Assembly: GCA_038061755.1 (NCBI GenBank)
Contig: JBBTYN010000004.1
Location: 3,198-67,197 of the forward strand
Reading direction: 5' to 3'
Length of the DNA stretch: 64,000 nucleotides
Source: Patescibacteria group bacterium
Lineage (GTDB): Bacteria; Patescibacteriota; Minisyncoccia; Phycocordibacterales; UBA9973
How positions within the stretch are numbered: the first letter of the stretch is position 1; each line of letters starts with the position of its first letter. A program made the translations under genes and the position numbers. The notes under the pieces are model-generated. The model ran no database searches. It saw only the letters and a list, made by a program, of their open reading frames with translations, and was not told the origin of the DNA. Positions 9,557 to 58,395 of this stretch are shown piece after piece.

Positions 9557-10270
9557 ATGTCTAAATTTTATGTGGTGGCGACACCGATAGGAAATATGGG
9601 AGACATTACACTCCGAGCTATCGAAACACTAAAAAGTGTGGATTTGATATTGTGTGAAGATACTCGAGAGACTAAGAAGATTTTAGATAAATATGGTATC
9701 AGTAAAATAACTATGAGTTATCCATCCGATGATGTAATCGGAAAAAACTACAGACAAAGTAAGCTTGCAAAGATTTTAAGATTACTAGAAGAAGGGAAAA
9801 ATTTAGCATTAGTTTCAGACGCTGGTACACCAGGGATTTCTGATCCGGGAGCTTTACTTGTTTCTCAAATCAAAGAGCATTTTAATCCAGCAAGGGGAGT
9901 CCTTGCTGGAAAAGTGCAAGTTATTCCAATTCCGGGTCCTTCAGCCGTTATCGCTGCGCTCTCGGCCTCAGGATTACCAATTCATGAATTCACTTTTCTA
10001 GGTTTTTTGCCACACAAAAAAGGTAGGGAAACATTATTTAAAGAAATTTCGCAAGCAAAAAGAACGATGGTATTTTATGAATCTCCGCATAGAATATTAA
10101 AAACGCTAGAATCTCTTATAAAATATACCCCAAATAAAAAAGTCTGTATTGCTCGAGAATTGACAAAAATTTATGAAGAATTTAAAACAGGTACACCTGT
10201 TGAAGTTTTGGAATATTTTCAAAAGAATAAAGAGAAGCAAAGAGGGGAGTTTGTTGTTATAGTTTCTTGA
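9557..10270 (+). CDS. rsmI: 16S rRNA (cytidine1402-2'-O)-methyltransferase; tetrapyrrole-methylase fold.
   Basis: N-terminus LYVVATPIGNMGDITLRAIETLKSVDLILCEDTRETKKIL is diagnostic of RsmI. Confidence 0.85.
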   Translation: MSKFYVVATPIGNMGDITLRAIETLKSVDLILCEDTRETKKILDKYGISKITMSYPSDDVIGKNYRQSKLAKILRLLEEGKNLALVSDAGTPGISDPGALLVSQIKEHFNPARGVLAGKVQVIPIPGPSAVIAALSASGLPIHEFTFLGFLPHKKGRETLFKEISQAKRTMVFYESPHRILKTLESLIKYTPNKKVCIARELTKIYEEFKTGTPVEVLEYFQKNKEKQRGEFVVIVS

Positions 10271-10273
10271 AAA

Positions 10274-10317
10274 GCCAAAGGGCATCTTTGACACACTTGT
10301 CAAAGATGCCCTTTGGC
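10274..10317. repeat. Nested palindromic element, copy 1, variant A: gccaaagggcatctttgaca-cact-tgtcaaagatgccctttggc. It lies between the convergent genes rsmI and priA.
   Basis: Perfect 20-bp arms. Sits between two converging genes. Confidence 0.9.
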
Positions 10318-10322
10318 AGGAT

Positions 10323-12275
10323 TTACAACAAATCTTCGGGATCTACAAATATTTCAAAAGATGATGGAAGAGAAAGAAGTTTAGCTAGAAGATTTTTATC
10401 TATAGAAGAATTAGTGGAAATTTCTGGAAGAGACCATTCTTGAGTATTTATTTTTATTAATGTGTTTGTTACATATTTATTTTTATTTTTAGTTATAAAT
10501 CCACTGAAGATTTCAGGATTGTATTCTTTAAAAAGTTCTTTTAATGTTTTTTTAGCTTCAATAGACTCTTCTTTATCACCAAAATAGGTAATTTTTATAA
10601 AACGTTTATATGGTGGATAGAATAATTTACGTCTATCTTCTAATTCTTCTCGCACAAAAGATAATAAATTTCCTGCTTTAATTGCAAGGATTGCTGGATC
10701 ATTCTCATTTTTTATTTGGATGATAAGTAATTCTTTTGTGTTATTAATTATTGAAAGTACAATTTGGATAATTTTTTCACTCATTTTAAAATTTGGTATG
10801 CTCCAAAGTGAATCAAAAGAAGCGATAATTGAAAGTGACACTTTGTTTTTTAAGTAGAAAAATGCCATTTCTGTACCTATTAATATTGACCCCTGATTAT
10901 CTTCAAATTCTTTTATGATTTTTTTGGCACCACTTTCTGTTTTTGCAGATTCTTTGTCTAATCTAAAAATTTTTGTTTTTGGAAATTTATTTTTAATTTC
11001 TTCGAAAACAGTTTCTGTTCCTATTCCAAGAGGCATTAAATTCCAACTTCCACAAGTTGCACAAGCAATGTCTCCGTCTATATTTATTTCACATCTATTA
11101 CATACGAACGCCCTTTTTTTATTTTGGTGTGACATATAAAGTACTAATGGTGCTCCACATTTTTCACAGCTCATTGTTTCATTGCAGTCTTTACAAAGAG
11201 TCATAGTTGCTAAACCTTTCCTTAATGAGAAAATAAAAATACTTTTTTTATTTTCTAATGTAGATTTTATTTCTTTTATACTTTCATCATTTAATATTTG
11301 GAATTTTTTATTACCTCTCCCCCCATCGCCTGGTAATTGGCGGGCAGGCTTACCTAAAACTTCTATTTTTCCATCAAAATCAATTCTAAAAGATAACGGA
11401 TATAAGGGATTTAAATTATCCATATCTTTTCTTCCAATTGTCTCGTAGCGTAATATTTCATCAGCTATAATAAATCTAGCATTTATTTTTGAAGCATAAA
11501 TCTCTACAAAAACTCTTAAATCAATATGTGTTTTCGTAATTATTTTATAAATATTAGAATTTTCGTGTTCTAAAATTATAGTGCCAATATTTTTTTTAGG
11601 AATAGACAAAAATGGCGGAGTGCTGATGATTAAGACTGGGTGAGTGGAATTTATTATTTTTTCATAAGTTATTAATTTTTTTTTTGCATTTATTCCACCA
11701 TGTATAGAAAAAGTAAATTTTTCAATTCCTTTTGATAATTGAAGAGTAAATTTTTCTATATCAAACTGAGTTGGTAAAACCAAAAAAATAGATTTATTTC
11801 TTGCAAAAGATTCTCGAACAAGTGTTTTGTATATAGATATGCGATCTTGTAATGGATATTGAAATAATAATTTTTCAGATTTTAGATTTTGTTGTTTTTC
11901 AAGCGAGGTAAAAGGTGGGGTAAGGTGCATTATCTTATCATATTTTTCTATAAAAATATTTGGAATTAATGAAGCAATGGCACTGTTTTTATTTTGGGCA
12001 AAATATTTACTTGTATCAAAAATTGTATCAAGAAATTCTTTTAAAAAAAAAGAACTTCCTTTGTCTTTTGTAACTTTTTTTAAGTTAAAATCCATATTTT
12101 TTACATTGCTTTTTTCCCCTTTTAGTTCTTCACTAGAAGTAACTAGCGCCAGGGTTTCCTTGTTTCTTATTGGAACAGATACAATATTTCCAACAGCTAT
12201 GTTCAAACTGGTAAAATAAGTTAAATCACCTTTCAATATACATTTTTTTAGTGGTATGACGGATATTATTTTCAT
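10323..12275 (-). CDS. priA: Primosomal protein N' (PriA)-like. The Cys-rich zinc region and C-terminal lobe are intact, but the Walker A and DEEH motifs are degenerate.
   Basis: Cys-rich region CKDCNETMSCEKCGAPL...CNRCEINIDGDIACATCGS and lobe-2 motifs are present. No GxGKT is seen, and the DEEH position reads IILEHENS. Confidence 0.7.
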   Translation of the reverse strand: MKIISVIPLKKCILKGDLTYFTSLNIAVGNIVSVPIRNKETLALVTSSEELKGEKSNVKNMDFNLKKVTKDKGSSFFLKEFLDTIFDTSKYFAQNKNSAIASLIPNIFIEKYDKIMHLTPPFTSLEKQQNLKSEKLLFQYPLQDRISIYKTLVRESFARNKSIFLVLPTQFDIEKFTLQLSKGIEKFTFSIHGGINAKKKLITYEKIINSTHPVLIISTPPFLSIPKKNIGTIILEHENSNIYKIITKTHIDLRVFVEIYASKINARFIIADEILRYETIGRKDMDNLNPLYPLSFRIDFDGKIEVLGKPARQLPGDGGRGNKKFQILNDESIKEIKSTLENKKSIFIFSLRKGLATMTLCKDCNETMSCEKCGAPLVLYMSHQNKKRAFVCNRCEINIDGDIACATCGSWNLMPLGIGTETVFEEIKNKFPKTKIFRLDKESAKTESGAKKIIKEFEDNQGSILIGTEMAFFYLKNKVSLSIIASFDSLWSIPNFKMSEKIIQIVLSIINNTKELLIIQIKNENDPAILAIKAGNLLSFVREELEDRRKLFYPPYKRFIKITYFGDKEESIEAKKTLKELFKEYNPEIFSGFITKNKNKYVTNTLIKINTQEWSLPEISTNSSIDKNLLAKLLSLPSSFEIFVDPEDLL

Positions 12276-21127: not shown

Positions 21128-22138
21128 ATGTCAAATCTATATTCCAATTCAATTTTTTGGATTGATACTGATAAAATAAAACCAAATCCTTTTCAACCAA
21201 GACGAGATTTTGATGAAGCTCGTTTGCAAGACTTAGCTGATTCAATAAAACAATATGGAGTTCTTCAGCCACTTATAGTTTCTCGAGTAGAGGTAGAAAA
21301 AGATGGTGGCGGACTTGTAACTGAATATGAATTAATAGCTGGAGAGCGCAGGCTTCGAGCTGCTAAGATTGCAATGGTATCGCAAGTGCCAGCTGTAATT
21401 CGTGCAGGAGATACAGCTTTAATGAAACTTGAGCTTGCGATTATTGAAAATTTACAGCGCGAAGATTTAAACGTCATTGATAGGGCTCGAGCTTTTTTTC
21501 GCTTAGTTACTGAATTTAAATTTACCCACAATGAAGTAGCAAAAAAGATGGGCAGAAGCAGGGAATATGTTTCAAATACTTTGCGTATTTTAACCCTACC
21601 AGAAGAAATTTTAAATGGTTTATCCGAAGGAAAAATTTCCGAAGGACATACTAGGCCTATTTTGATGCTCGCAGACCATCCTCAAGAACAATTAGTTTTA
21701 TTTAAAGAAATTGTTTACAAAAAAATTACCGTACGTGAGGCAGAAAGATTAGCGAGAAAAATAGCTTATGATCGTGTACGCAAGAAAGAATTTATGCCAG
21801 ATCCAGAAATTACGGAACTGGAAGAAGAATTTCAAGAAAAATTAGGCACTCGTGTTCACATAGATAGAAAAGAATTAGGTGGACAAATTAAAATTGATTT
21901 TTTTTCTACCGAAGATTTGCGAACAATTTTAGATTTAATTCATAAAGGAGAAGTTGAAAAAAAACCTGAAGAAATGATGGATAATTATATTACAAATTCA
22001 GAGGTTAAATCTTTGGAGTTTGGACGTCCAGAATCCGAATTTTTAACATCAAAAGAAGCTCCAGTTGACGACAGATCCAAAGAAGAAGCAGAAAAAGACG
22101 AGACTGATTTATATAATATTTCTAATTTTAGCGTTTAA
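21128..22138 (+). CDS. parB: ParB/Spo0J chromosome-partitioning protein.
   Basis: ParB box GERRLRAAK plus an HTH, with an acidic C-terminal extension. Confidence 0.85.
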   Translation: MSNLYSNSIFWIDTDKIKPNPFQPRRDFDEARLQDLADSIKQYGVLQPLIVSRVEVEKDGGGLVTEYELIAGERRLRAAKIAMVSQVPAVIRAGDTALMKLELAIIENLQREDLNVIDRARAFFRLVTEFKFTHNEVAKKMGRSREYVSNTLRILTLPEEILNGLSEGKISEGHTRPILMLADHPQEQLVLFKEIVYKKITVREAERLARKIAYDRVRKKEFMPDPEITELEEEFQEKLGTRVHIDRKELGGQIKIDFFSTEDLRTILDLIHKGEVEKKPEEMMDNYITNSEVKSLEFGRPESEFLTSKEAPVDDRSKEEAEKDETDLYNISNFSV

Positions 22139-22154
22139 GTAAATTGCCAAAGAT

Positions 22155-22199
22155 GCCAAAGATGCCCTTTGACACTGAGTGTCAAAGGGCATCTTTGGC
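22155..22199. repeat. Nested palindromic element, copy 2, variant B: gccaaagatgccctttgacac-tga-gtgtcaaagggcatctttggc. It is preceded by a partial direct duplicate, gccaaagat. It lies between the convergent genes parB and rel.
   Basis: Perfect 21-bp arms. Confidence 0.9.
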
Positions 22200-22204
22200 A
22201 AACA

Positions 22205-23674
22205 TTAGCTACGACCAAAAGACATCAGCTTTGAGAGAAGACTATTTTTTTCTAAATATGATTTTATATGTTTTTTTGCAACAGAGGTTTTAACATACTC
22301 AAGCCATTTACTGGATGGCCTTGAATCTTTTTTTGTGATTATCTCAACTATATCTCCATTTTTTAATTTTGTAAAAATATGAGACATTTTACTGTTTATT
22401 TTAGCCCCAGAAATATGATTTCCAATATCTGTATGTATTGAATAAGCAAAATCTATTGGGCTTGAGTCTTCTGGTAAGTCTACAACATCTCCCTTTGGTG
22501 TAAAAATAAAGATACGATTATTAAAAAAATCCATTTTTAGGTGGTCGATAAAACTTTTCGGATCACCCGGAGAATAATTTAATTCTTTTAATTCCTCAAT
22601 CCATTTGAATTTATCTTTATCGTCCTTAGTTTTTTTTACGCCTTGTTCTTTGTAGGCGAAATGCGCAGCTATACCATAGGCTGCTTCAGTATGCATTTCT
22701 TTTGTCCTTATTTGTATTTCTGCAACACCTCCTAAACCAGTAAAAACAGTTGTGTGAATAGAGCGATAGCCATTTGGCTTTGGAATAGCAATAAAATCTT
22801 TTATTCTTCCAGGCAATGGATTCCAAATAGAATGTATTAATCCTAAAACTCGATAACAATCTTCGATACTGTCTACGACAACACGAAGTGCAACAACATC
22901 GTAAATTTTATCCAAATCCATACCATATTTTAATAATTTTTTATATAAACTATATTTATGTTTGATTCGATAATCAATTTCCACAACTTTTATATTATTT
23001 CTTAATAGTTCTTTTTTCAACACTTCACTGACTTCTGCAAGATTTTTTTCGTATGAATCTTTTTTTTCTTTAATTATTTCTTCTACTTGTGCATATTCTT
23101 TTGGGTAAGCATATGGAAAAGCAGCATTTTCCAAATCACCTTTTAATTTACCCATTCCTAGACGATCAGCTAAACGAGCGTGAATCTCAATTGTCTCCAA
23201 AGCTATACGTTTTTGTTTTTCTGGTTTTTTGTATTCCAGAGTTTGTGCATTATGTAATCTGTCGGCAAGCTTGATAATCACCACCCGAAGATCTCTTGCC
23301 ATCGCCAGGAAGAATTTTCGCAAACTTTCTACGTGGCGGTCGTCTCCTCGGTATTTTATATTACTTAATTTGGTAATTCCTTTTACCAAAAAAGCAATTT
23401 CTTCGCCGAATTCTTTTTTTATATCTTCTTCGGTTGTTTCTGTGTCTTCAACTGTGTCGTGCAAAAAACCGGCGGCAATCGTTTCCGCATCCATTTGAAG
23501 TTTGGTTAGATTCTTCGCAGTTTCAAAAGCATGTGTAAAGTATAGTTCTCCAGAATCACGTTTCTGTCCAGCGTGTGCATTTACAGCAAAATCATAAGCT
23601 TTTTTTAAAAGAACTTTTTCGCCTTCGGTAAATGGTTGCTTTTTTAGTTTATATAATTCCTCAATGTTATTCAT
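22205..23674 (-). CDS. rel: Bifunctional (p)ppGpp synthetase/hydrolase Rel, short form (HD, synthetase and TGS domains; no ACT domain).
   Basis: HD motif HDTVEDT, the synthetase domain, and a TGS region. Confidence 0.85.
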   Translation of the reverse strand: MNNIEELYKLKKQPFTEGEKVLLKKAYDFAVNAHAGQKRDSGELYFTHAFETAKNLTKLQMDAETIAAGFLHDTVEDTETTEEDIKKEFGEEIAFLVKGITKLSNIKYRGDDRHVESLRKFFLAMARDLRVVIIKLADRLHNAQTLEYKKPEKQKRIALETIEIHARLADRLGMGKLKGDLENAAFPYAYPKEYAQVEEIIKEKKDSYEKNLAEVSEVLKKELLRNNIKVVEIDYRIKHKYSLYKKLLKYGMDLDKIYDVVALRVVVDSIEDCYRVLGLIHSIWNPLPGRIKDFIAIPKPNGYRSIHTTVFTGLGGVAEIQIRTKEMHTEAAYGIAAHFAYKEQGVKKTKDDKDKFKWIEELKELNYSPGDPKSFIDHLKMDFFNNRIFIFTPKGDVVDLPEDSSPIDFAYSIHTDIGNHISGAKINSKMSHIFTKLKNGDIVEIITKKDSRPSSKWLEYVKTSVAKKHIKSYLEKNSLLSKLMSFGRS

Positions 23675-26899: not shown

Positions 26900-28171
26900 A
26901 TGTTAGACATCAAATTTATTCGTGAAAATAAAGATATTGTGCAGGCGGGTGCGAAGAAAAAAAATATTGAGATAGATATTGATGCTTTGATTGTGCTTGA
27001 TGATAATCGCTTAAAAGAACTTAAAGAAGTAGAAGAACTTCGTAGTGAAGTAAATAGAGTTTCAAATGATATATCTCGCGATCAAGATCCAGCATCCAAA
27101 ATTCAACTAATTGAAGAAATGCGCGCAGTGAAAGAAGACATTAAAGCAAAAGAAGAAAAATTAAAAATAACCATAGAAGAATGGCAGAAAATTATGGTGC
27201 AAGTGCCTAATGTGCCAGATATGTCTGTACCAGATGGAAAAACAGATGTGGAAAACAAAGAAGTAAAAGTTTGGGGTGAAATTCCAAAATTTGATTTTAC
27301 TCCTAAAAATCATATTGAGCTTATGGAAAATTTAGGAATACTTGATATGGCTAGAGGTGTAAAAGTTGCTGGTTTTCGTGGATATTTTTTAAAGGGTGAT
27401 GGAGCTCTTCTTGAATTTGCTTTATGGCAGTTTGTGCAGGATTTCTTTTCTAAAAAAGGAGGCTTTATTCCGATGATTGTTCCTTCTCTTTTGAAACGAG
27501 AAGTATTTTTAGGTACTGGTTATCTTCCGCAAGGTGAAGAAGATTTATACAAAACGCAAGATGGCGAGTATTTATCAGGTACAGCAGAAGTTGCAATGAT
27601 GGGGCACTATATGGGTGAAATTTTAGAAAAAAAAGATCTGCCAATAAAAATGCTTGGATTTTCTTCTGCTTTTCGTCGTGAGGCGGGAAGTCATGGTAAA
27701 GATACAAAAGGTATTCTTAGAGTTCATGAATTTTTTAAATTTGAACAAGTTGTACTTTGTGAAGCACAACATACAGAATCAGTAAAATTTCATGAAGAAA
27801 TACAACGTAATACTGAAGAAATTATGGAGGCATTAGGATTGCCTTATCATGTGGTAATAAACTGTGCTGGAGATCTTGGTTTGGGTCAAGTTAAAAAATA
27901 TGACATTGAAGCTTATTTGCCATCTGAAAATACCTATCGGGAAACTGGTTCTGCTAGTTATTTTCATGATTTTCAAACAAGACGATTAAATATCCGTTAT
28001 CGTGATGAAAATGGTAAATTAAAATTTGTTCACTCTTTAAATAATACTGCTCTTTCTGGTAGACCACTCATTATGATAGTAGAAAACTACCAACAAGCAG
28101 ACGGATCTATAAAAATTCCAGAAGTTTTACGCAAATACATGGGAGGTAAGGAATTTATAAAAAATAGCTAG
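26900..28171 (+). CDS. serS: Seryl-tRNA synthetase.
   Basis: N-terminal coiled coil MLDIKFIREN and class II motifs. ATG 26900 preferred as the start. Confidence 0.9.
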   Translation: MLDIKFIRENKDIVQAGAKKKNIEIDIDALIVLDDNRLKELKEVEELRSEVNRVSNDISRDQDPASKIQLIEEMRAVKEDIKAKEEKLKITIEEWQKIMVQVPNVPDMSVPDGKTDVENKEVKVWGEIPKFDFTPKNHIELMENLGILDMARGVKVAGFRGYFLKGDGALLEFALWQFVQDFFSKKGGFIPMIVPSLLKREVFLGTGYLPQGEEDLYKTQDGEYLSGTAEVAMMGHYMGEILEKKDLPIKMLGFSSAFRREAGSHGKDTKGILRVHEFFKFEQVVLCEAQHTESVKFHEEIQRNTEEIMEALGLPYHVVINCAGDLGLGQVKKYDIEAYLPSENTYRETGSASYFHDFQTRRLNIRYRDENGKLKFVHSLNNTALSGRPLIMIVENYQQADGSIKIPEVLRKYMGGKEFIKNS

Positions 28172-28208
28172 GCAAGACCTAGCATGCTAGGTCTTGCCTA
28201 GCTATTTT
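28161..28208. repeat. Perfect 48-bp palindrome aaaatagctaggcaagacctagcatgctaggtcttgcctagctatttt. It overlaps the serS stop codon.
   Basis: Seen directly. Likely a terminator or attenuator hairpin between serS and the downstream gene. Confidence 0.85.
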
Positions 28209-28213
28209 ACACA

Positions 28214-29101
28214 ATGCAAAAAAGAAATGTTTTAAATTCTCCTGGTCTTTTAGAATTAAAAAAAAGAAGGCATAGAGTTTTTTTTAATAAAGTTTTAATT
28301 TTTTTGTTTGGAGTTTTAGTAATTTTCTTATTATTAGTTTATCTTTCTTGTCTTAATAAATTAAATATTAGTGAAGTGGAGATTCTTGGTAATAAAGTTT
28401 TAGATACAGAAAAATTAAATAATGCAGTAGAAAAGCAAATTGCTGGAAAATATTTATGGCTTTTCCCTAAGACTAATATTTTAATATATCCCCAAAATAC
28501 TATTAAGAACGAACTTCAAAATGAGTTTAAGAGAATTAAAGATATTAATTTGAAGATTAAAAATACTAAAATATTAGAAGTATTATTGACTGAAAGAGAA
28601 GCGAAATATACTTGGTGCGGGATAATTTTTTCTGGTGTTGGAATCCCACAGGGAAGTCCAATACCCGAAAAAAAAGAAGAAAATTGTTATTTTATGGATG
28701 AAGATGGTTATATTTTTGATGAAGCGCCATATTTTTCTGGTGAAATTTATTTTAGGTTTTATGGTCAGGTAAATAGTAATCCTATTGGATTTTATTTTTT
28801 TGAACAAAATTTTAAACAATTAGTTGCTTTTAGAGATATTCTTATTAGTATTGGATTAAAACCTATAGCATTAAATATTTTGAATATTGAAGACGCAGAA
28901 ATTATTCTTTCAAGTGAAACTTCTTTAATAAATGAACCTAAAATTATTTTTAGATTAAATGCTGATTTTCAAAATGTTGCAGAAAATTTACAAACAGCTT
29001 TAAATACCGAACCCCTAAAATCAAAATTTAAAAATAAATATTCAATGTTGCAATATATTGATTTGCGATTCAAAAATAAAGTTTATGACAAATTCCAATA
29101 A
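28214..29101 (+). CDS. ftsQ: FtsQ/DivIB-like cell-division protein (TM helix plus POTRA domain).
   Basis: N-terminal TM helix and a POTRA-like segment (ISEVEILGNKVL...LLTEREAKYTW). Confidence 0.5.
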   Translation: MQKRNVLNSPGLLELKKRRHRVFFNKVLIFLFGVLVIFLLLVYLSCLNKLNISEVEILGNKVLDTEKLNNAVEKQIAGKYLWLFPKTNILIYPQNTIKNELQNEFKRIKDINLKIKNTKILEVLLTEREAKYTWCGIIFSGVGIPQGSPIPEKKEENCYFMDEDGYIFDEAPYFSGEIYFRFYGQVNSNPIGFYFFEQNFKQLVAFRDILISIGLKPIALNILNIEDAEIILSSETSLINEPKIIFRLNADFQNVAENLQTALNTEPLKSKFKNKYSMLQYIDLRFKNKVYDKFQ

Positions 29102-30137
29102 AAAAAATTTCTGGAAAAATCTTGAAAAACCATTTTTTTGTTTAGCGCCAATGTCGGACGTTACCGATATTGCTTTCCGCTCCATATTGATGAAATATAG
29201 CAAGGATAGAGAAAATAAAAACAGTGTTGTTTTTTGGACAGAATTTGTTGCAGCTGATGGTTTGTGCAATAAACTTGCTAGAAAAAAACTAGCGCATATA
29301 TTAAAATTTAAAGAGAGCGAAAGACCAATTGTAGCTCAAGTTTTTGGTGCTAATCCTGATAATATGAAGTATGCTTGCCAATATATTGCTAGCCTTGGTT
29401 TTGATGGGATAGATATAAATATGGGTTGTCCAGATAAATCTGTGGTAAGCCAAGGAGCAGGTTCTGGTTTGATTAAAAATCCATTACTTGCCAGAAAAAT
29501 TATACAGGCGGCACACGCTGGGATAGATTCTGCTGGTCTACATATCCCAGTATCTATTAAAACAAGAATTGGTTTTAATAAAGAAGAAATTGATATTTGG
29601 ATAGGGGAATTGTTAAAAGAGGATATTTCTGCTTTAACAATTCATTTGCGTACCACTAAGGAATTATCACTTGCACCGGCACATTGGGATTTAATGAAAA
29701 GAATTATTGAATTACGAAATAAAATAAGCCCAGAGACTTTAATAATTGGCAATGGAGATGTAAAAGATTTAAAAGATGGGGAGGAAAAAGCTCTAAAGTA
29801 TGGTTGTGATGGAGTTATGATCGGTCGTGGAGTTTTTGGTAATCCTTGGTTTTTTAAAAGCCAAAGGGCACCTTTGACACACTTGTCAAAGGTGCCCTTT
29901 GGCAATGAGGAATCAAATGTTAAAGAAAAATTAAAAATTTTAGTAGAGCACACACAGATTTTCGAAAAGGAACTTTCAGGACCTAAACATAAAAGTTTTG
30001 CCGTTATGAAAAAGCATTTTAAAGCGTATGTGAATGGTTTTGAAGATGCAAAAGAGCTTCGAGTAAAATTAATGGAAACAGAAAATGCTAAAGAAGTTGA
30101 GAAGATAGTTAATGATTTTTTAACTCGCCTACATTAA
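29058..30137 (+). CDS. dus: tRNA-dihydrouridine synthase. It carries an in-frame copy of the palindromic element at 29860..29903.
   Basis: FFCLAPMSDVTD, VAQVFG, INMGCP and GVMIGRG motifs of Dus. The start may instead be ATG 29085. Confidence 0.85.
   Translation: MICDSKIKFMTNSNKKNFWKNLEKPFFCLAPMSDVTDIAFRSILMKYSKDRENKNSVVFWTEFVAADGLCNKLARKKLAHILKFKESERPIVAQVFGANPDNMKYACQYIASLGFDGIDINMGCPDKSVVSQGAGSGLIKNPLLARKIIQAAHAGIDSAGLHIPVSIKTRIGFNKEEIDIWIGELLKEDISALTIHLRTTKELSLAPAHWDLMKRIIELRNKISPETLIIGNGDVKDLKDGEEKALKYGCDGVMIGRGVFGNPWFFKSQRAPLTHLSKVPFGNEESNVKEKLKILVEHTQIFEKELSGPKHKSFAVMKKHFKAYVNGFEDAKELRVKLMETENAKEVEKIVNDFLTRLH
29860..29903. repeat. Nested palindromic element, copy 3, variant A. It lies inside the dus ORF and is translated as QRAPLTHLSKVPFG.
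   Basis: Perfect palindrome with the ORF left open. Relative to copy 1 it has the compensatory change t/a to c/g. Confidence 0.9.
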
Positions 30138-31391: not shown

Positions 31392-31462
31392 TGGGAGATC
31401 GTCTAATGGTAGGACACCTCCCTTTGAAGGAGGTTATCTTGGTTCGAATCCAAGCCTCCCAG
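31392..31462 (+). tRNA. tRNA-Gln (anticodon UUG).
   Basis: U1-A72 pair as in bacterial tRNA-Gln. Anticodon stem CCTCC/GGAGG with loop CTTTGAA, T-arm CTTGG-TTCGAAT-CCAAG, one A-C mismatch at positions 7-66. Confidence 0.75.
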
Positions 31463-31497
31463 CAGTGGTGAGAATTAACAAGATCTTTGAAGCCGTG

Positions 31498-31534
31498 GTA
31501 TAGCAAGGTATAGCAAGAACGGTTCTTGCTATAC
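31498..31534. repeat. Perfect 27-bp palindrome gtatagcaagaac-g-gttcttgctatac, preceded by a direct duplicate of its first 10 nt.
   Basis: Seen directly. It has the same AGCAAGAAC half-site as the repeat at 1798..1846. Confidence 0.85.
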
Positions 31535-31542
31535 CAAATAAT

Positions 31543-34979: not shown

Positions 34980-37886
34980 ATGATTTCCCGAATATATGTG
35001 ACACCTAAAGGCAAAGCTAATTTCATTAATTCTTATTTAATTTCACATAAATTTGCAAGTGATCAAAGAGATAAAATCCTTAAAATAGCCAAGGCTTTAA
35101 CTAACCCCATCCTCGAAGAATTTTTTATAAATAAATTCCCAAAAACAAAGAAATTTACTTATGTAATAGAAATAGGTTTTAAACCTGGGGTCACAGACAA
35201 TGTCGGGCATACTGTAGAAGAAACTATAATTGATTTACTGGGTGTTGTCGGGTGTCCAACACCCGACAACATAGCAGTCTATACTTCTAAGATTTTTTTA
35301 GTTTCCAATTCTAAATTAGAAGAAGTAAAAAAGATTGCTCTCTCGCTTCACAATCCTCTCATTGAGCGTTCTTATGTCGCGAGTTTTGCTGAAATAAAAA
35401 AAAATGGCTTACCCTTAAAGGTTCCTAAGGTTATTTTAAAAAAGGCTATTCCTGTAATTAATGTTTCTCTTAATGTGTCTGATGAAGAACTTAAAAAAAT
35501 CGGAAAAGAGGGGATAATGGACGAAACAAATATTAGACGAGGTCCTTTGGCTCTTGATTTGACATCAATGAAAGTAATCCAAGAACATTTTAAAAAATTT
35601 AAAAGAGATCCGACCGATATTGAGCTGGAGTCTCTTGCGCAGACTTGGTCTGAACATTGTAAACATACTATTTTTGCAAATCCTATTGACGACATCAAAG
35701 ACGGTTTATATAAAACATACATAAAAAGCGCAACAAATCTAATCAGAAAAAATAAAGGCAAAAATGATTTTTGTATTTCTGTATTTTCTGATAATTCTGG
35801 AGGAATAATTTTTGATAAAGATTATTTAATAACGCATAAAGTTGAAACACACAACAGCCCTTCAGCCTTAGATCCATTTGGAGGTGCTATCACAGGTATT
35901 GTGGGTGTAAATCGAGACACGATAGGTTTTGGCTTAGGTGCTAAACCAGTAGCTAATGTTTATGGTTTTTGTTTTGGAAACCCAGAAGATAAAAGCTTAC
36001 TTTTTCGCGACAAAAATTTAACACAAAAAATGCTTTCACCAAAAAGAATAATGGAAGGGGTGGTAAAAGGTATAAATGTAGGAGGAAACTGTTCCGGAAT
36101 ACCGACTCTTTCTGGTTTTGTTCATTATGATGATAGATATAGGGGCAAGCCTCTAGTTTTTGCTGGCACAGTCGGATTAATTCCAAGAAAAATACAAGGA
36201 AAATTATCACACAAAAAACAGGCACAAGTTGGAGATTATATCGTTGTTGTTGGCGGAAGAGTAGGGCTTGATGGTATTCATGGGGCAACTTTTTCTTCTG
36301 TGGTAATGGATTCAAGTTCCCCAGCGACCGCAGTGCAAATCAGTGACCCAATTACTCAAAAAAAATTAAGTGATGCAATAATTAAAGAAGCGCGTTATAT
36401 GAATTTATATAATAGTATTACTGATAATGGTGCTGGTGGAATTTCTTGTTCAGTTGCTGAAATGGCAAAAGAATGCGGGGGAGCAAAAGTTTTTTTGGAA
36501 AAAGTACCACTAAAATACCTGAGTCTTCGTCCATGGGAAATTTGGATTTCAGAATCACAAGAACGTATGACTTTATCGGTGCCAAAGAAAAAGTGGAGTA
36601 CATTCAAAAAATTAATGGAGAAAAGGGGAGTGGAAGCGACAGTAATAGGTGAATTTACAAATTCTAAAAAATGTATTGTAGAATATAGTGGTAAAAAAAT
36701 CATGGATATTGATATGGAATTTTTACATGAAGGACTTCCAAAACAACATTTAATTACTTCTTCAGTTATTTATAAAAATATTGAACCAATACTTGAAATA
36801 AAAAAATCTTTTACTGCAATTCTAGAAAAATTACTAAGTAATAAAAATCTTAGTGGATTTTCTTTTATTTCCGAACAATATGACCATGAAGTGCAAGGGT
36901 CTTCTGTTCTAAAACCACTTTCTGGGAGAGGTCGTATAAATACCGATGCACAAGTTTTTCAACCAGTTTTAAATTCAAATAAAGGAGTTATTTTGTCTTC
37001 TAGTACTTATCCTTCATATGGAGATATTAGCACTTATCATATGGCTTCTTGCGCGATAGATACTGCTATTAGAAATACTGTTTGTTCTGGTGGAACACTT
37101 TCGCATTTAGCAATTTTAGATAATTTTTGTTGGTGTTCATCCAATGACCCAAAACGTTTAGCGCAGTTAGTAGATTCAGTGAAAGCTTGTTATGAATATG
37201 CTGTAGGTTTTGGTACACCTTTTATTTCTGGCAAAGACAGTATGTTTAATGATTTTAAAGGTTATGATGAAAAAGGGGAGCCTATGGCTGTTTCTATACC
37301 ACCGACACTTCTTATTTCAGCGATCAGCGTTATGCCTGACTTAAATAAAACTGTTTCTCCAGAATTTAAAAAAATTGGCGATATAATTTATTTATTAGGA
37401 GAAACGAATGATGAACTTGGTGGGGGAGAATATTATAAAACACTTGGCGTTGTTGGTAGTAATGTACCAAAAGTAGATTTAAAGAAAAATATAAAAACTT
37501 ATCGCGCTTTAGAAAAAGCAATTCAAAAAGAATTAATAGCTTCGGCAATATCTGTAAATTCTGGCGGACTTGCAATAGCACTCGCCAAAGCCTGTGTGGG
37601 AGGAATGGTAGGTTGTAATGTTTCCCTAAAGAGCCAGATAGCGCCTAAGGCGCTATCTGTAGAAGTAAAATTATTTTCTGAAAGTCAGGGAAGAATTTTA
37701 GTTTCTGTTTCCCATCAAAATGTTGCTAAATTTGAGCAAATAACCGCTACTTTACCAAGGGTTACCCTTGGTAAAGTAATAAAAGATGGGAAATTTATAA
37801 TTACCAATGGTAAAAATAAAGTAGTAGAAACAAATATTAAAAAGTTGTATGATGCATACCATAAATTTTCTAACTCACAAAAATGA
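34980..37886 (+). CDS. purL: Phosphoribosylformylglycinamidine synthase, a PurS-like N-terminal domain and linker fused to a PurL synthetase. The glutaminase is encoded separately downstream.
   Basis: PurS-like segment VIEIGFKPGVTDNVGHTVEETI, then PTDIELESLAQTWSEHCKHTIF and the AIR-synthase-related FGAM domains. 968 aa. Confidence 0.85.
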   Translation: MISRIYVTPKGKANFINSYLISHKFASDQRDKILKIAKALTNPILEEFFINKFPKTKKFTYVIEIGFKPGVTDNVGHTVEETIIDLLGVVGCPTPDNIAVYTSKIFLVSNSKLEEVKKIALSLHNPLIERSYVASFAEIKKNGLPLKVPKVILKKAIPVINVSLNVSDEELKKIGKEGIMDETNIRRGPLALDLTSMKVIQEHFKKFKRDPTDIELESLAQTWSEHCKHTIFANPIDDIKDGLYKTYIKSATNLIRKNKGKNDFCISVFSDNSGGIIFDKDYLITHKVETHNSPSALDPFGGAITGIVGVNRDTIGFGLGAKPVANVYGFCFGNPEDKSLLFRDKNLTQKMLSPKRIMEGVVKGINVGGNCSGIPTLSGFVHYDDRYRGKPLVFAGTVGLIPRKIQGKLSHKKQAQVGDYIVVVGGRVGLDGIHGATFSSVVMDSSSPATAVQISDPITQKKLSDAIIKEARYMNLYNSITDNGAGGISCSVAEMAKECGGAKVFLEKVPLKYLSLRPWEIWISESQERMTLSVPKKKWSTFKKLMEKRGVEATVIGEFTNSKKCIVEYSGKKIMDIDMEFLHEGLPKQHLITSSVIYKNIEPILEIKKSFTAILEKLLSNKNLSGFSFISEQYDHEVQGSSVLKPLSGRGRINTDAQVFQPVLNSNKGVILSSSTYPSYGDISTYHMASCAIDTAIRNTVCSGGTLSHLAILDNFCWCSSNDPKRLAQLVDSVKACYEYAVGFGTPFISGKDSMFNDFKGYDEKGEPMAVSIPPTLLISAISVMPDLNKTVSPEFKKIGDIIYLLGETNDELGGGEYYKTLGVVGSNVPKVDLKKNIKTYRALEKAIQKELIASAISVNSGGLAIALAKACVGGMVGCNVSLKSQIAPKALSVEVKLFSESQGRILVSVSHQNVAKFEQITATLPRVTLGKVIKDGKFIITNGKNKVVETNIKKLYDAYHKFSNSQK

Positions 37887-46377: not shown

Positions 46378-47925
46378 ATGATAAAAGAAAATAAAAAAAT
46401 AAAATCAGCTTTAATTTCAGTTTTTAATAAAGATGGACTTGAAGAAATTGTAAAACTTCTTCATAGGCATAATGTAAAAATTATTTCTACTGGTGGTACG
46501 GCAGAATTTATTCGCAAACTTAGTGTACCAGTAACTGAAGTAGAAGAAATCACAAATTATCCTGCCTTATTTGGTGGTAGAGTTAAAACACTGCAACCAC
46601 AAATTTTTGGCGGGATTTTAAATCGCCGAGATAATGTAAATGATATAAAAGAAAAAGTGGAGCACAAAATAGAAGACATTGATTTGGTAATCGTAGACCT
46701 ATATCCATTTGAAGAAACTCTAGCTAGTGGAGCTAATGAGGAAGAAATTATTGAAAAAATAGACATCGGCGGAGTATCTTTAATTCGCGCAGCGGCGAAA
46801 AATTTTAATGATGTCGTAGTGATTCCTTCAAAACATCAATATGAAGAATTAAAAAATATTTTAAAAATAAGTGACACTACGACATTAGAACAACGCAAAA
46901 AATTTGCAGGCAATGCATTTGAAGTGACAAGTATTTACGATAGTGCTATTCGTGGGTATTTTCAACCTTTGCCAAAGATGCCCTTTGACATATTGATGTC
47001 AAAGGGCATCTTTGGCAATATCCCGCTGCGCTATGGAGAAAACCCACACCAAAGAGCAAAATTTATAGGTAATTTAGAAGAGAGTTTTATACAACTTCAT
47101 GGAAAAGAGCTTTCTTATAATAATTTGATGGATACTGAAGCTGCCATTATGACCGTTTATGATTTTAGAGATCCTGCTTTCGCTATTGTTAAACATATGA
47201 ATACTTGCGGTCTGGCTGTTAGGGAAGAAGGACATTTATTTGAGGCGTATCAAGCAGCTTATAATGCCGACCCACTTTCAGCTTTTGGTGGAGTATTAAC
47301 AGCTAATAGAATTATTGAGGAAGACATCGCTAAACTTATCAAGGAACAAAAACTTTTTATAGAAGTAATTATTGCGCCAGATTTTTCAAAAGAAGCTTTA
47401 AATATTTTAATGGAGAAAAAGGATTGTAGAATTTTGAGGTGGAAAAAACCAAACCTTCCGCTAAAACAAAACAAGACTTGCTTTACTGGAATTCTGTCGC
47501 AAGATCGAGATACTCATATAGAAAGTGAGACAGATTTAAAAGTGACAACTAAGCGTGAACCAACAGAGCAAGAGAAAAAGGATTTACTCATTGCTGCAGT
47601 AATAACGAAACATTTAAAATCTAATGCTATCGCTTTAGTAAAAGATGGAACACTTCTTTCAATGGGTTGTGGACAAACTTCACGCATTGATGCATTAAAA
47701 CAAGCTATTGATAAAGCCAAAAAATTTAAATTTTCACTCAAGGGTGCTGTTATGTCATCTGAAGCATTTTTCCCATTTCCTGATTGCGTAGAGATGGCAG
47801 GGGAAGAAGGTATAACTGCTGTACTTCATCCTGGAGGTTCAAAGAATGATCAAACATCCATAGATATGGCAAATAAATACAAAATGGCAATGGTAACAAC
47901 TGGCTTTAGACATTTTAAGCATTGA
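46378..47925 (+). CDS. purH: Bifunctional AICAR transformylase / IMP cyclohydrolase. It carries an in-frame copy of the palindromic element at 46971..47016.
   Basis: MGS-like N-terminal domain and an AICARFT domain (LRYGENPHQ). Confidence 0.9.
   Translation: MIKENKKIKSALISVFNKDGLEEIVKLLHRHNVKIISTGGTAEFIRKLSVPVTEVEEITNYPALFGGRVKTLQPQIFGGILNRRDNVNDIKEKVEHKIEDIDLVIVDLYPFEETLASGANEEEIIEKIDIGGVSLIRAAAKNFNDVVVIPSKHQYEELKNILKISDTTTLEQRKKFAGNAFEVTSIYDSAIRGYFQPLPKMPFDILMSKGIFGNIPLRYGENPHQRAKFIGNLEESFIQLHGKELSYNNLMDTEAAIMTVYDFRDPAFAIVKHMNTCGLAVREEGHLFEAYQAAYNADPLSAFGGVLTANRIIEEDIAKLIKEQKLFIEVIIAPDFSKEALNILMEKKDCRILRWKKPNLPLKQNKTCFTGILSQDRDTHIESETDLKVTTKREPTEQEKKDLLIAAVITKHLKSNAIALVKDGTLLSMGCGQTSRIDALKQAIDKAKKFKFSLKGAVMSSEAFFPFPDCVEMAGEEGITAVLHPGGSKNDQTSIDMANKYKMAMVTTGFRHFKH
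46971..47016. repeat. Nested palindromic element, copy 4, variant B. It lies inside the purH ORF at the inter-domain linker and is translated as LPKMPFDILMSKGIFG.
   Basis: gccaaagatgccctttgacat-attg-atgtcaaagggcatctttggc with 21-bp perfect arms. The ORF is left open. Confidence 0.9.
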
Positions 47926-56844: not shown

Positions 56845-57225
56845 ATGGAAAAAATCAAGTCATTTATAGAGAGTGAGAAAGGGAAAGATATTTTGATAGT
56901 TCTCATTGTTATTTTGGTTGGTTTAGGATCATTTGAGCTAGGTAGGCTATCAAAAGAAAATGACTCGGGAAGCATAAAAATAGAATATCCGAATCAAGAT
57001 TTCAACCAAGAAGCCAGCACTATTTCAGCTATAAGTAATGTGCCAAAGACAGTCTTTGATACAAATTCATTTAGAAAAACTTTTTTCGCTTCAAGCAAGG
57101 GAACTAAATATTATACAATAAGCTGTTCTGCCGGTAAAACTATCAAACAAGAAAACAGAGTTTATTTTACAACAGGGGAGGAGGCGCAAGCGGCCGGGTA
57201 TACTCTTTCTAGCTCGTGTCAATAA
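56845..57225 (+). CDS. Membrane-anchored protein with a C-terminal Ada-like metal-binding domain.
   Basis: N-terminal TM helix. The C-terminus YYTISCSAGKTIKQENRVYFTTGEEAQAAGYTLSSSCQ resembles the Ada_Zn_binding pattern (YC...C...F.s..eA.aaGyrpC). Confidence 0.45.
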   Translation: MEKIKSFIESEKGKDILIVLIVILVGLGSFELGRLSKENDSGSIKIEYPNQDFNQEASTISAISNVPKTVFDTNSFRKTFFASSKGTKYYTISCSAGKTIKQENRVYFTTGEEAQAAGYTLSSSCQ

Positions 57226-58232: not shown

Positions 58233-58261
58233 ATGATATAGTATAGTAGTTCGCACAATAT

Positions 58262-58291
58262 ATGTAAAGCGAATAACTATTCGCTTTACAT
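58262..58291. promoter_or_regulatory. Perfect 30-bp palindrome atgtaaagcgaata-ac-tattcgctttacat immediately upstream of xer; candidate operator or dif-like site.
   Basis: Seen directly. A second, imperfect hairpin lies at 58295..58331. Confidence 0.5.
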
Positions 58292-58395
58292 AACGCAGAT
58301 TTTACGACACCGAAGGTTCGTAATAATCTGCTCAAAGCGAACTTATCCACATATATAAATATATTCTATATATTAACAAGTCCCTTCCCAGATTA

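Follow-up and report, generated by a model that had tools for sequence, protein, structure and literature searches.

Inverted doublets of a 21-nt palindrome between and within genes of Patescibacteria: a probable REPtron-like system linked to a Y1 transposase

The 64,000-nucleotide stretch of a Patescibacteria group bacterium analysed here (contig JBBTYN010000004.1, hereafter the window; GC content 33 %) carries four closely similar perfect palindromes, two of which lie between convergent genes and two in frame inside the genes dus and purH, and this report concerns their structure, their relatives in other genomes and the transposase gene that such relatives adjoin. The DNA stems from groundwater of the Hainich (well H43), of which the 0.1 µm fraction was sequenced as a metagenome. 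A preliminary description made from the sequence alone had reported four palindromes of 44-46 bp with arms of 20-21 bp. An inverted-repeat scan verified all four at their sites, with perfect arms in each, and gave lengths of 44-50 nt and perfect arms of 20-23 nt. The elements and their host genes are as follows.

10274-10317: copy 1, with 20-nt perfect arms and a 4-nt loop, GC-CAAAG-GGCAT-CTTTG-ACA / cact / TGT-CAAAG-ATGCC-CTTTG-GC.
22145-22153, plus strand: 9-nt tandem duplication (GCCAAAGAT) of the start of the left arm of copy 2, with a single-nucleotide polymorphism in a 99 % strain variant, L029.
22154-22200: copy 2, with 23-nt perfect arms and 1 nt at the centre, in the other configuration, TGC-CAAAG-ATGCC-CTTTG-ACA / ctgag / TGT-CAAAG-GGCAT-CTTTG-GCA.
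29058-30137, plus strand: host gene of copy 3, dus, tRNA-dihydrouridine synthase (Dus).
29860-29903: copy 3, with 20-nt perfect arms and the 4-nt loop cact, a doublet with the core GGCAC/GTGCC.
46378-47925, plus strand: host gene of copy 4, purH, bifunctional PurH.
46969-47018: copy 4, with 23-nt perfect arms and 4 nt at the centre, TGC-CAAAG-ATGCC-CTTTG-ACA / tattga / TGT-CAAAG-GGCAT-CTTTG-GCA.
57041-57061, plus strand: solo unit, TGC-CAAAG-ACAGT-CTTTG-ATA, in frame (PKTVFD) in the Ada_Zn_binding open reading frame (ORF) 56845-57225, just N-terminal of the domain.

Copy 1 takes up the 52-nt gap that separates the stops of two convergent ORFs, one at 9557-10270 (plus strand; TP_methylase family, RsmI-like) and one of 650 aa at 10323-12275 (minus strand), for which no Pfam match was obtained. 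Copy 2 is likewise placed between the stops of parB (21128-22138) and relA/spoT (22205-23674), which also converge; the distances of these two copies from the stop codons are 2-15 nt. Copy 3 is translated in frame in dus, where it contributes KSQRAPLTHLSKVPFG to the linker that follows the TIM-barrel domain (context ...GNPWFF-KSQRAPLTHLSKVPFG-NEESNVKEKL...; KSQRAPLTHLSKVPFGN is a sequence of Dus at the insert), and copy 4 is translated in frame in purH as LPKMPFDILMSKGIFGN, between the IMP-cyclohydrolase and AICAR-transformylase parts (context ...RGYFQP-LPKMPFDILMSKGIFGN-IPLRYGENPHQ...). Alignment to solved structures mapped both inserts to inter-domain linkers of variable length. An Rfam scan of the window at the gathering threshold returned three tRNAs only and no family match for the elements, and a promoter scan found TTGACA inside the arm with no matching -10.

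The four copies have a common layout, (T)GC-CAAAG-[5-nt core]-CTTTG-ACA, a loop, and TGT-CAAAG-[complementary core]-CTTTG-GC(A), in which the 5' arm has the core GGCAT (copy 1), GGCAC (copy 3) or the flipped form ATGCC (copies 2 and 4). In the window the 15-mer CAAAGGGCATCTTTG is found, as such or as its reverse complement, eight times at no more than one mismatch, every time within one of the four elements, and CAAAG-N5-CTTTG occurs nine times as compared to an expected 0.12, the ninth occurrence being the solo unit (at 57044); eight of these nine units are in doublets. The basic unit is a 21-nt quasi-palindrome, TG-N-CAAAG-N5-CTTTG-N-CA, with a stem of 5-8 bp around an asymmetric 5-nt core, and the 44-nt elements are inverted doublets of this unit, the two units being 1-10 nt apart. 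The solo unit is probably a singlet remnant or a single-unit insertion. Folding energies of the hairpins were -37 to -46 kcal/mol per element, with z-scores of -8 to -11 in comparison to shuffles, and perfect hairpins with a stem of at least 13 bp numbered 10 in the window and 0.05 in shuffled sequence. As 15 contigs of independent samples and assemblers share an identical purH copy, and L029, which was sampled from another well, also has copies 2 and 3, the elements are real and not an assembly artefact.

The two strand-isomers described earlier both exist, and inversion of the core in place is not needed to explain them. Since the unit is an imperfect palindrome, its inverted doublet has two configurations, as is the case in REPINs, the inverted doublets of repetitive extragenic palindromic (REP) sequences (PMC3337134). 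Copies 1 and 3 were indeed alike, loop included, save for a T>C change in one arm and the compensating A>G change in the other. This compensated pair is real, and a local double mutation is not needed to account for it: because GGCAC, the core of copy 3, is a widespread variant and the commonest core beside the transposase genes described below (five of nine), copy 3 more likely represents a second master variant. The perfection of the arms agrees with a model where a hairpin must be intact to be a substrate, and arm-to-arm correction by template switching may have contributed to it.

The family is not confined to the window. A scan of a collection holding one genome per species, in which the 5-nt cores were left free and their complementarity was not demanded, returned 24 loci, almost all in metagenome-assembled genomes (MAGs) of Patescibacteria (Doudna-, Nomura- and Paceibacterota, 'Saccharibacteria' and two Hainich bins), and more than 15 Patescibacteria MAGs besides that of the window carry the family. 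The two cores were exactly complementary in 28 of the 29 matches, though the pattern allowed otherwise, so that these matches and all four window copies have the form of REPINs, that is, inverted doublets with complementary cores, in both configurations. The core often differs between genomes (GGCAT, GGCAC, GGAGT, AGACA, GCGGG, ACCGT, AGTCC and others), with the commonest ones recurring in several, and the outermost three positions read TG-N...N'-CA in nearly all copies, N being compensated. The stem also has compensated variants, such as CAAGG/CCTTG, and the 21-nt unit falls within the description of a REP as a stem-loop-forming palindrome of 20-50 nt. Of the 27 true members of the family, 14 are located within long ORFs and in frame with them, and most of the others are 2-20 nt from a stop codon. 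Several cores contain, as judged by eye, type IIS-like pentamers; the idea of a restriction site was dropped.

In one MAG, binchicken_co274_39, eight dispersed copies and a Y1 transposase gene were found in one genome; the core was GGCAC in all eight, and one copy was in the flipped configuration. This MAG (L008, L016, L018, L021, L023 and L026 in our set) is labelled 'uncultured Gammaproteobacteria', and since relatives of its Y1 transposase and repeats were found only in Patescibacteria, the label looks doubtful. In another locus (L022, 3250-3310, minus strand) a fragment past the doublet in a TypA/BipA-like GTPase gene, tttgacacaaag, resembles the remnant of a further unit.

Presence/absence polymorphism was found at each of the three loci tested (copies 2, 3 and 4), where close relatives (80-88 %) have empty orthologous sites. 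In L030 and L032 (81-82 % identity) the stops of parB and relA abut or overlap, which is the empty site, and the window and L029 have approximately 66 extra nt at this place, including copy 2. For dus the comparison covered the 120 orthologues closest to Dus (72-99 % identity, Paceibacteria/Nomurabacteria), in most of which the linker is empty (330-335 aa), while about 14 carry the family as CQRxSLT...SKxxF[DG]; copy 3 is a net insertion of about 45 nt in comparison to the empty orthologues. On the DNA level L030 (82 %) is empty, and L032 (81 %) has a copy with the core GGAAT and a 10-nt loop, six codons further on. As this copy is inserted six codons away and has a different core, it represents an independent event. 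One ancient, vertically inherited insertion per site was ruled out for dus, the insertion points being several codons apart, and may apply to purH.

The purH site was compared in 120 orthologues. It is empty in 92 of them (YF-QG-xx-LRYGENPHQ) and filled by the family at exactly the same place in 22; three types of the inserts are doublets, and the others are single 21-nt units that read [MV]SKxxFD[TI], corresponding to TGTCAAAG-N5-CTTTGACA. DNA retrieved for 22 metagenomic orthologues contained single units with the cores GCGGG and ACGGT, and one unit with a compensated stem change (TGTCAAGG...CCTTGACA). Filled and empty purH genes were interleaved in a star-like neighbour-joining tree, and the interleaving is robust for some pairs only: the purH of P0170 is 90 % identical to an empty gene and 81 % identical to the closest filled gene, and in most cases the identities to the best filled and the best empty relative differ by 1-2 % only. 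The PurH of P0123 has two adjoining single units with unrelated cores (VSKTVFD + MSKAGFD), which suggests that a unit was inserted next to an existing one or that the site was hit twice. Taken over the three loci, sites have been gained and/or lost repeatedly, and the survivors are those at gene ends and in permissive linkers.

The repeat was further found to adjoin a gene for a Y1 transposase. In L021, which belongs to the MAG with eight copies, a 207-aa ORF with the motifs LMPNHFHLV and YVHQNP matched Pfam Y1_Tnp (PF01797) with 41.4 bits (cut-off 23), and its best NCBIfam model was 'REP-associated tyrosine transposase' (RAYT). A doublet lies 16 nt upstream of the start of this gene and a single unit directly after its stop, and the arm of the doublet equals window copy 3 at 19 of 20 positions, the sole difference being at an outer position. 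This transposase gene likewise neighbours a tyrosine recombinase gene, as does one of the window hairpins listed further below. Homologues of about 207 aa number in the thousands, and those with a taxon name among the top 120 are all from Patescibacteria MAGs; the HUH (YCLMPNHFH) and tyrosine (YI..NP) motifs are at least 90 % conserved in these 120. For eight further homologues with DNA, nested CAnnG-N5-CnnTG hairpins were present beside the gene in all eight, and on both sides in seven. The repeat thus adjoins the Y1 gene in nine of the nine genes examined in other Patescibacteria genomes, eight times on both sides; in L063 it is present downstream only, because the upstream flank is coding sequence. 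The repeats beside these further genes are as follows.

L057/L058 (Doudnabacteria): upstream, a CAAAG-GTGCC/GGCAC-CTTTG doublet; at the 3' end, a single unit.
L061: GGCAT as the core, on both sides.
L060: on both sides, CAAGG-GGGAC-CCTTG.
L059 and L064: CGATG-GGCAC-CATCG.
L062: CATG-GGCAC-CAT.
L063: CAATG-TGCGT-CATTG, downstream only.

The core beside the nine Y1 genes was GGCAC in five and GGCAT in one. The stem varies by genome (CAAAG, CGATG, CAAGG, CAATG) and the architecture is kept, with both doublet configurations represented (L021 in comparison to L057). An AlphaFold model of the protein (pLDDT 87.7) had as its top Foldseek match 4ER8 (E 1e-6, TM 0.55/0.67), a structure of the REP-associated tyrosine transposase of E. 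coli with a REP hairpin bound, followed by the TnpA proteins of IS608, IS200 and ISDra2 (E 3e-4 to 1e-3). Judged by their sequences, the Y1 proteins beside the repeat form a divergent clade. In four of the nine lineages (L059, L061, L062 and L064, including Taylorbacteria and Yanofskybacteria) the gene lies in the locus DUF4012-(x)-transposase-lepA, where x is a small ORF, and between two genomes that share this locus the transposase is 61 % identical and LepA 62 %, which may point to a vertical, housekeeping-like inheritance of a domesticated Y1 gene.

Systems of REPs, of bacterial interspersed mosaic elements (BIMEs) and of REPINs with a RAYT (TnpA-REP), known as REPtrons, have been described in Proteobacteria (PMC3116915, PMC3337134, PMC3333891, PMC8266576, PMC6006769). 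A REPtron consists of a Y1 HUH transposase gene flanked by cognate REPs, of which more copies are dispersed in the genome (PMC8266576, PMC6006769). In a REPIN, two REPs in inverted orientation make up a hairpin, and two configurations exist because each REP is an imperfect palindrome; singlets are regarded as remnants (PMC3337134), and a RAYT flanked by REPINs is a known feature of theirs (PMC3337134, PMC8266576). The Patescibacteria family resembles these systems in its short palindromic unit, the inverted doublets that make a long hairpin, the two configurations and the presence of singlets beside doublets; in a Y1 HUH gene that is flanked by cognate repeats and may be a vertically inherited single locus; in repeat variants that are often genome-specific; and in a predicted fold that best matches E. 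coli TnpA-REP (4ER8). It differs in several ways. The stem is AT-rich, with about 50 % GC, whereas REPs are GC-rich, and the GTAG/CGTC foot is lacking. The doublets are 44-52 nt long and perfectly paired, as compared to about 90-110 nt in REPINs. The copy number is low, the hosts are Patescibacteria, and the protein falls under the RAYT cut-off of NCBI. REPs are by definition found outside genes, whereas here about every second copy lies in frame within a gene. We therefore class the system as a divergent REPtron-like one and not as a canonical REP family.

Based on these findings we consider it likely that the palindromes belong to a REPtron-like system of Patescibacteria, in which REPIN-like doublets are mobilised by a RAYT-like Y1 transposase and often end up in frame in essential genes. 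The earlier suggestion of a REP- or RPE-type mobile or structural repeat family (RPE, Rickettsia palindromic element) is thereby supported on four counts, namely the occurrence in other genomes, the empty sites, the lack of a T tract together with the location of half of the copies in ORFs, and the flanked RAYT-like Y1 gene; the outcomes that had been named as speaking against it, that only these copies exist, that they show no polymorphism or that they are ordinary terminators, were not what we found. According to the proposed mechanism, a doublet in single-stranded DNA would fold into a perfect hairpin of about 20 bp, and a single-copy, vertically inherited Y1 HUH transposase of the RAYT/TnpA-REP-like type would bind the folded single-stranded unit and cut and rejoin single-stranded DNA by its HUH metal site and catalytic tyrosine. 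Doublets would in this way be copied or moved to new sites with no target-site duplication, and selection would remove all but harmless insertions. The survivors would be those in the few nucleotides between gene ends, or those that add 7-17 translated residues, in frame and with no stop, to a permissive linker between protein domains. The Y1 transposase would presumably also be present in the genome of the organism of the window; its catalysis on these hairpins would follow from homology, and the route would presumably be by single-stranded DNA.

Several results weigh against such a system. Comparison of filled and empty sites (parB/relA, dus and purH) yielded no target-site duplication, target motif or cleavage dinucleotide: neither a direct repeat nor a conserved flanking tetranucleotide was seen at the three loci, where the comparators are 74-85 % identical and the linkers themselves vary. 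Between the window and its 99 % variant L029 there was no difference in the presence or absence of a palindrome, which gives no sign of recent activity; the alignment has four breaks, two of them scaffold gaps with N runs and two divergent segments, and no palindrome is involved in any. That exactly one and the same purH codon is filled in many lineages could also be due to a filled allele having spread by recombination, instead of to repeated transposition. The L021 protein scored under the NCBIfam threshold for a RAYT (NF047646 equivalog, 55.3 bits, cut-off 80), and no solved relative was detected by sequence in the Protein Data Bank, either with phmmer or with a profile of 43 sequences. A tblastn search with the L021 protein found no Y1 gene in the 64-kb window or in about 40 kb more of the organism, and no match in other loci. 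The copy number is modest (four in the 64 kb of the window, and 1-8 exact matches per MAG elsewhere), so that, with 14 of 27 copies intragenic and in frame, the family is neither almost exclusively extragenic nor of high copy number as REPs are. Finally, a foot, defined for REPs as mostly GTAG, or CGTC, 5' of the palindrome (PMC8266576, PMC3733652), adjoins no copy, and the outer TG-N and N-CA belong to the palindrome itself.

Three other known kinds of element share features with the family. RPEs of Rickettsia (Ogata et al. 2000, as presented in PMC10969869) are likewise palindromes of a reduced genome that lie in frame in unrelated housekeeping genes, encode peptides tolerated by the fold and also occur between genes. 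As described in that source, they are about 100-150 bp long, code for 30-50 residues, are imperfect, are restricted to Rickettsia and have no known transposase (PMC10969869), whereas the Patescibacteria elements are 21-52 nt long, perfect, unrelated in sequence and linked to a Y1 transposase. The likeness to RPEs that had been proposed therefore holds for their behaviour, the in-frame intragenic insertion, and not for homology. In IS200/IS605 elements and their miniature derivatives a Y1 HUH transposase of the same fold superfamily recognises subterminal hairpins in single-stranded DNA and makes no target-site duplication. In those insertion sequences (IS), however, the left and right hairpins differ, the whole unit of gene plus ends is multicopy and mobile, and the protein has 130-150 aa, whereas in Patescibacteria only the hairpins are dispersed, the gene is at the conserved locus DUF4012-transposase-lepA and the protein has about 207 aa. 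Miniature transposable elements with inverted repeats (MITEs) that make in-frame fusions (ERIC, Correia, QMITE and cyanobacterial MITEs; PMC10969869) are also small non-autonomous repeats that may lie inside ORFs, but they have terminal inverted repeats around an internal segment and target-site duplications made by DDE transposases, neither of which was found in the Patescibacteria family.

Of the explanations that need no such transposase, the one that fares best, though we regard it as unlikely, is that the elements are not mobile and are functional RNA or DNA structures of the host, acting as bidirectional terminators or as stabilisers of mRNA 3' ends between convergent genes. The exact position of copies 1 and 2 between convergent stops, the many intergenic copies of other genomes that lie within 2-20 nt of a stop codon and the high stability of the hairpins would all agree with this, and REPs elsewhere have been co-opted for mRNA stability and attenuation (PMC3337134, PMC8266576). 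However, the signs of an intrinsic terminator are lacking in the window, as no T tract follows the stem, no copy was flagged by a terminator scan and two of the four copies are inside ORFs; more widely, about half of the family (14 of 27) lies in long ORFs, where termination would be harmful, relatives have abutting or overlapping convergent genes without a hairpin, and the same sequence flanks a transposase gene. Some intergenic copies may have been co-opted as terminators or stabilisers.

Still less probable, in our opinion, is a local origin with no dedicated enzyme, by template switching or snap-back synthesis at quasi-palindromes, followed by the spread of alleles through natural transformation and homologous recombination. 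Perfect arms throughout are what copying from arm to arm would produce, the 9-nt duplication beside copy 2 is of the slippage type, and the 10 perfect hairpins of the window are of several unrelated sequences. Several lineages, between which empty ones are interspersed, have one and the same purH codon filled by an identical core (GCGGG, peptide MSKAGFDT), and competence genes such as dprA are present. Such an origin cannot, however, place one 21-mer at loci that are unrelated and in Patescibacteria of different classes, and it leaves the flanking of the Y1 gene in nine of nine cases unexplained. Arm-to-arm correction and the spread of alleles may be secondary processes.

That the elements are MITEs consisting of terminal inverted repeats only, belonging to an IS with a DDE transposase and TG...CA ends as in IS3-like elements, and moving by cut-and-paste with target-site duplication, appears very improbable. 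The outer ends of nearly all copies do read 5'-TG-N...N-CA-3' and the elements are little more than two inverted arms, but no direct duplication was seen at any copy with an empty-site comparator, none of the loci showed an IS with ends of this kind, the insertion of single 21-nt units is not predicted by a model of paired terminal repeats, and the sole transposase found beside the repeat is a Y1 HUH enzyme. Least credible of the four is that the unit serves a DNA-binding protein, or the DNA-uptake machinery, as its recognition site: TGTCAAAG-N5-CTTTGACA is laid out like an operator that binds a dimer, and the uptake sequences of Neisseria and Haemophilus are often inverted pairs at gene ends, but uptake sequences are far denser and mostly single, whereas eight of nine window units are in doublets, protein binding needs no exact complement of the core, yet 28 of 29 are complementary, and the stem changes between genomes beside the transposase gene while the architecture is kept.

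Besides the family, the window contains other palindromes. At 28161-28208 a perfect palindrome of 48 nt with no loop has arms that share the nested design of the family and are unrelated to it in sequence, GCTAGG-CAAGA-CCTAGC (6-bp stem, 5-nt core). It is intergenic, just upstream of the ORF 28214-29101, and is present in L029 (99 %) and not as such in the 81-82 % relatives; it is possibly a second REPIN-like family. The perfect hairpins at 1812-1846 and 31507-31535 have the arm TAGCAAG[G/A]AC...GTTCTTGCTA in common and represent a further small repeat family, the latter hairpin lying just downstream of tRNA-Gln (31392-31463). Two more perfect hairpins, at 37748-37778 and 35243-35271 (stems of 15 bp and 13 bp), lie inside the 968-aa purL ORF 34980-37886, the first in frame as TLPRVTLGKV, and are candidates for palindromic insertions in coding DNA. 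A perfect AT-rich hairpin with a 15-bp stem at 58261-58292 is immediately upstream of a gene for a XerC/D-like tyrosine recombinase (minus strand). An imperfect palindrome (79 %) at 22001-22050, centred on GGACGTCC in the 3' part of parB and translated as EVKSLEFGRPESEFLTS, may be an old, decayed palindromic insertion. Among the Dus and PurH orthologues (P0001-P0240) there were at least seven other families of linker-inserted peptides that resemble translated palindromes: KRQDLENSKRSCL, SPPTPLLDKERG, NFSSLRP..DPREQKI, KNVLSEVEG, LKYFEDGRF..MSKNIS, QKPGFKNLEKPGF and GEGLGVRS in Dus, and CPQVRPVEPTGQTCGQ and SSFAKASADKQ in PurH. It therefore seems that these Patescibacteria genomes in general carry palindromic insertions in coding linkers.

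In the literature that was searched we found no report of REP, REPIN, RAYT or MITE-like elements in Patescibacteria, a search for the motif itself gave primer noise only, and a large survey of Y1 proteins does not mention the Patescibacteria phyla. REPs and REPINs are the textbook extragenic repeats of Proteobacteria, and a related system is now found in the Candidate Phyla Radiation (CPR), whose genomes of about 1 Mb are thought to offer selfish DNA hardly any space; essential enzymes here include about half of the copies as translated parts. This links two phenomena that had been separate, the spread of REPs driven by RAYTs and the RPE-like intragenic palindromes with no known enzyme. How a RAYT-type transposase spreads REPs has yet to be settled (PMC8266576), and the many natural pairs of filled and empty sites in highly conserved genes provide material for deriving the rules of insertion. 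The inserts of 7-17 residues (CQRxSLT..SKxxFD, [MV]SKxxFDT) and other linker peptides derived from palindromes will recur in alignments, structure predictions and gene calls of CPR genomes and should be recognised as repeat-derived.

A bolder proposal, which we put forward tentatively and regard as doubtful, is that Patescibacteria harbour an undescribed, divergent REPtron lineage whose hairpins routinely colonise genes and land repeatedly at the same permissive codon, as in PurH, Dus and a TypA/BipA-like GTPase. If this is true, coding DNA would be entered by a quasi-site-specific 'homing' due to the Y1 transposase or to the recombinational spread of filled alleles, RPE-type 'selfish DNA in genes' would have its first model with an enzyme attached, and ultra-small genomes would have in these elements a systematic source from which linkers and loops evolve.

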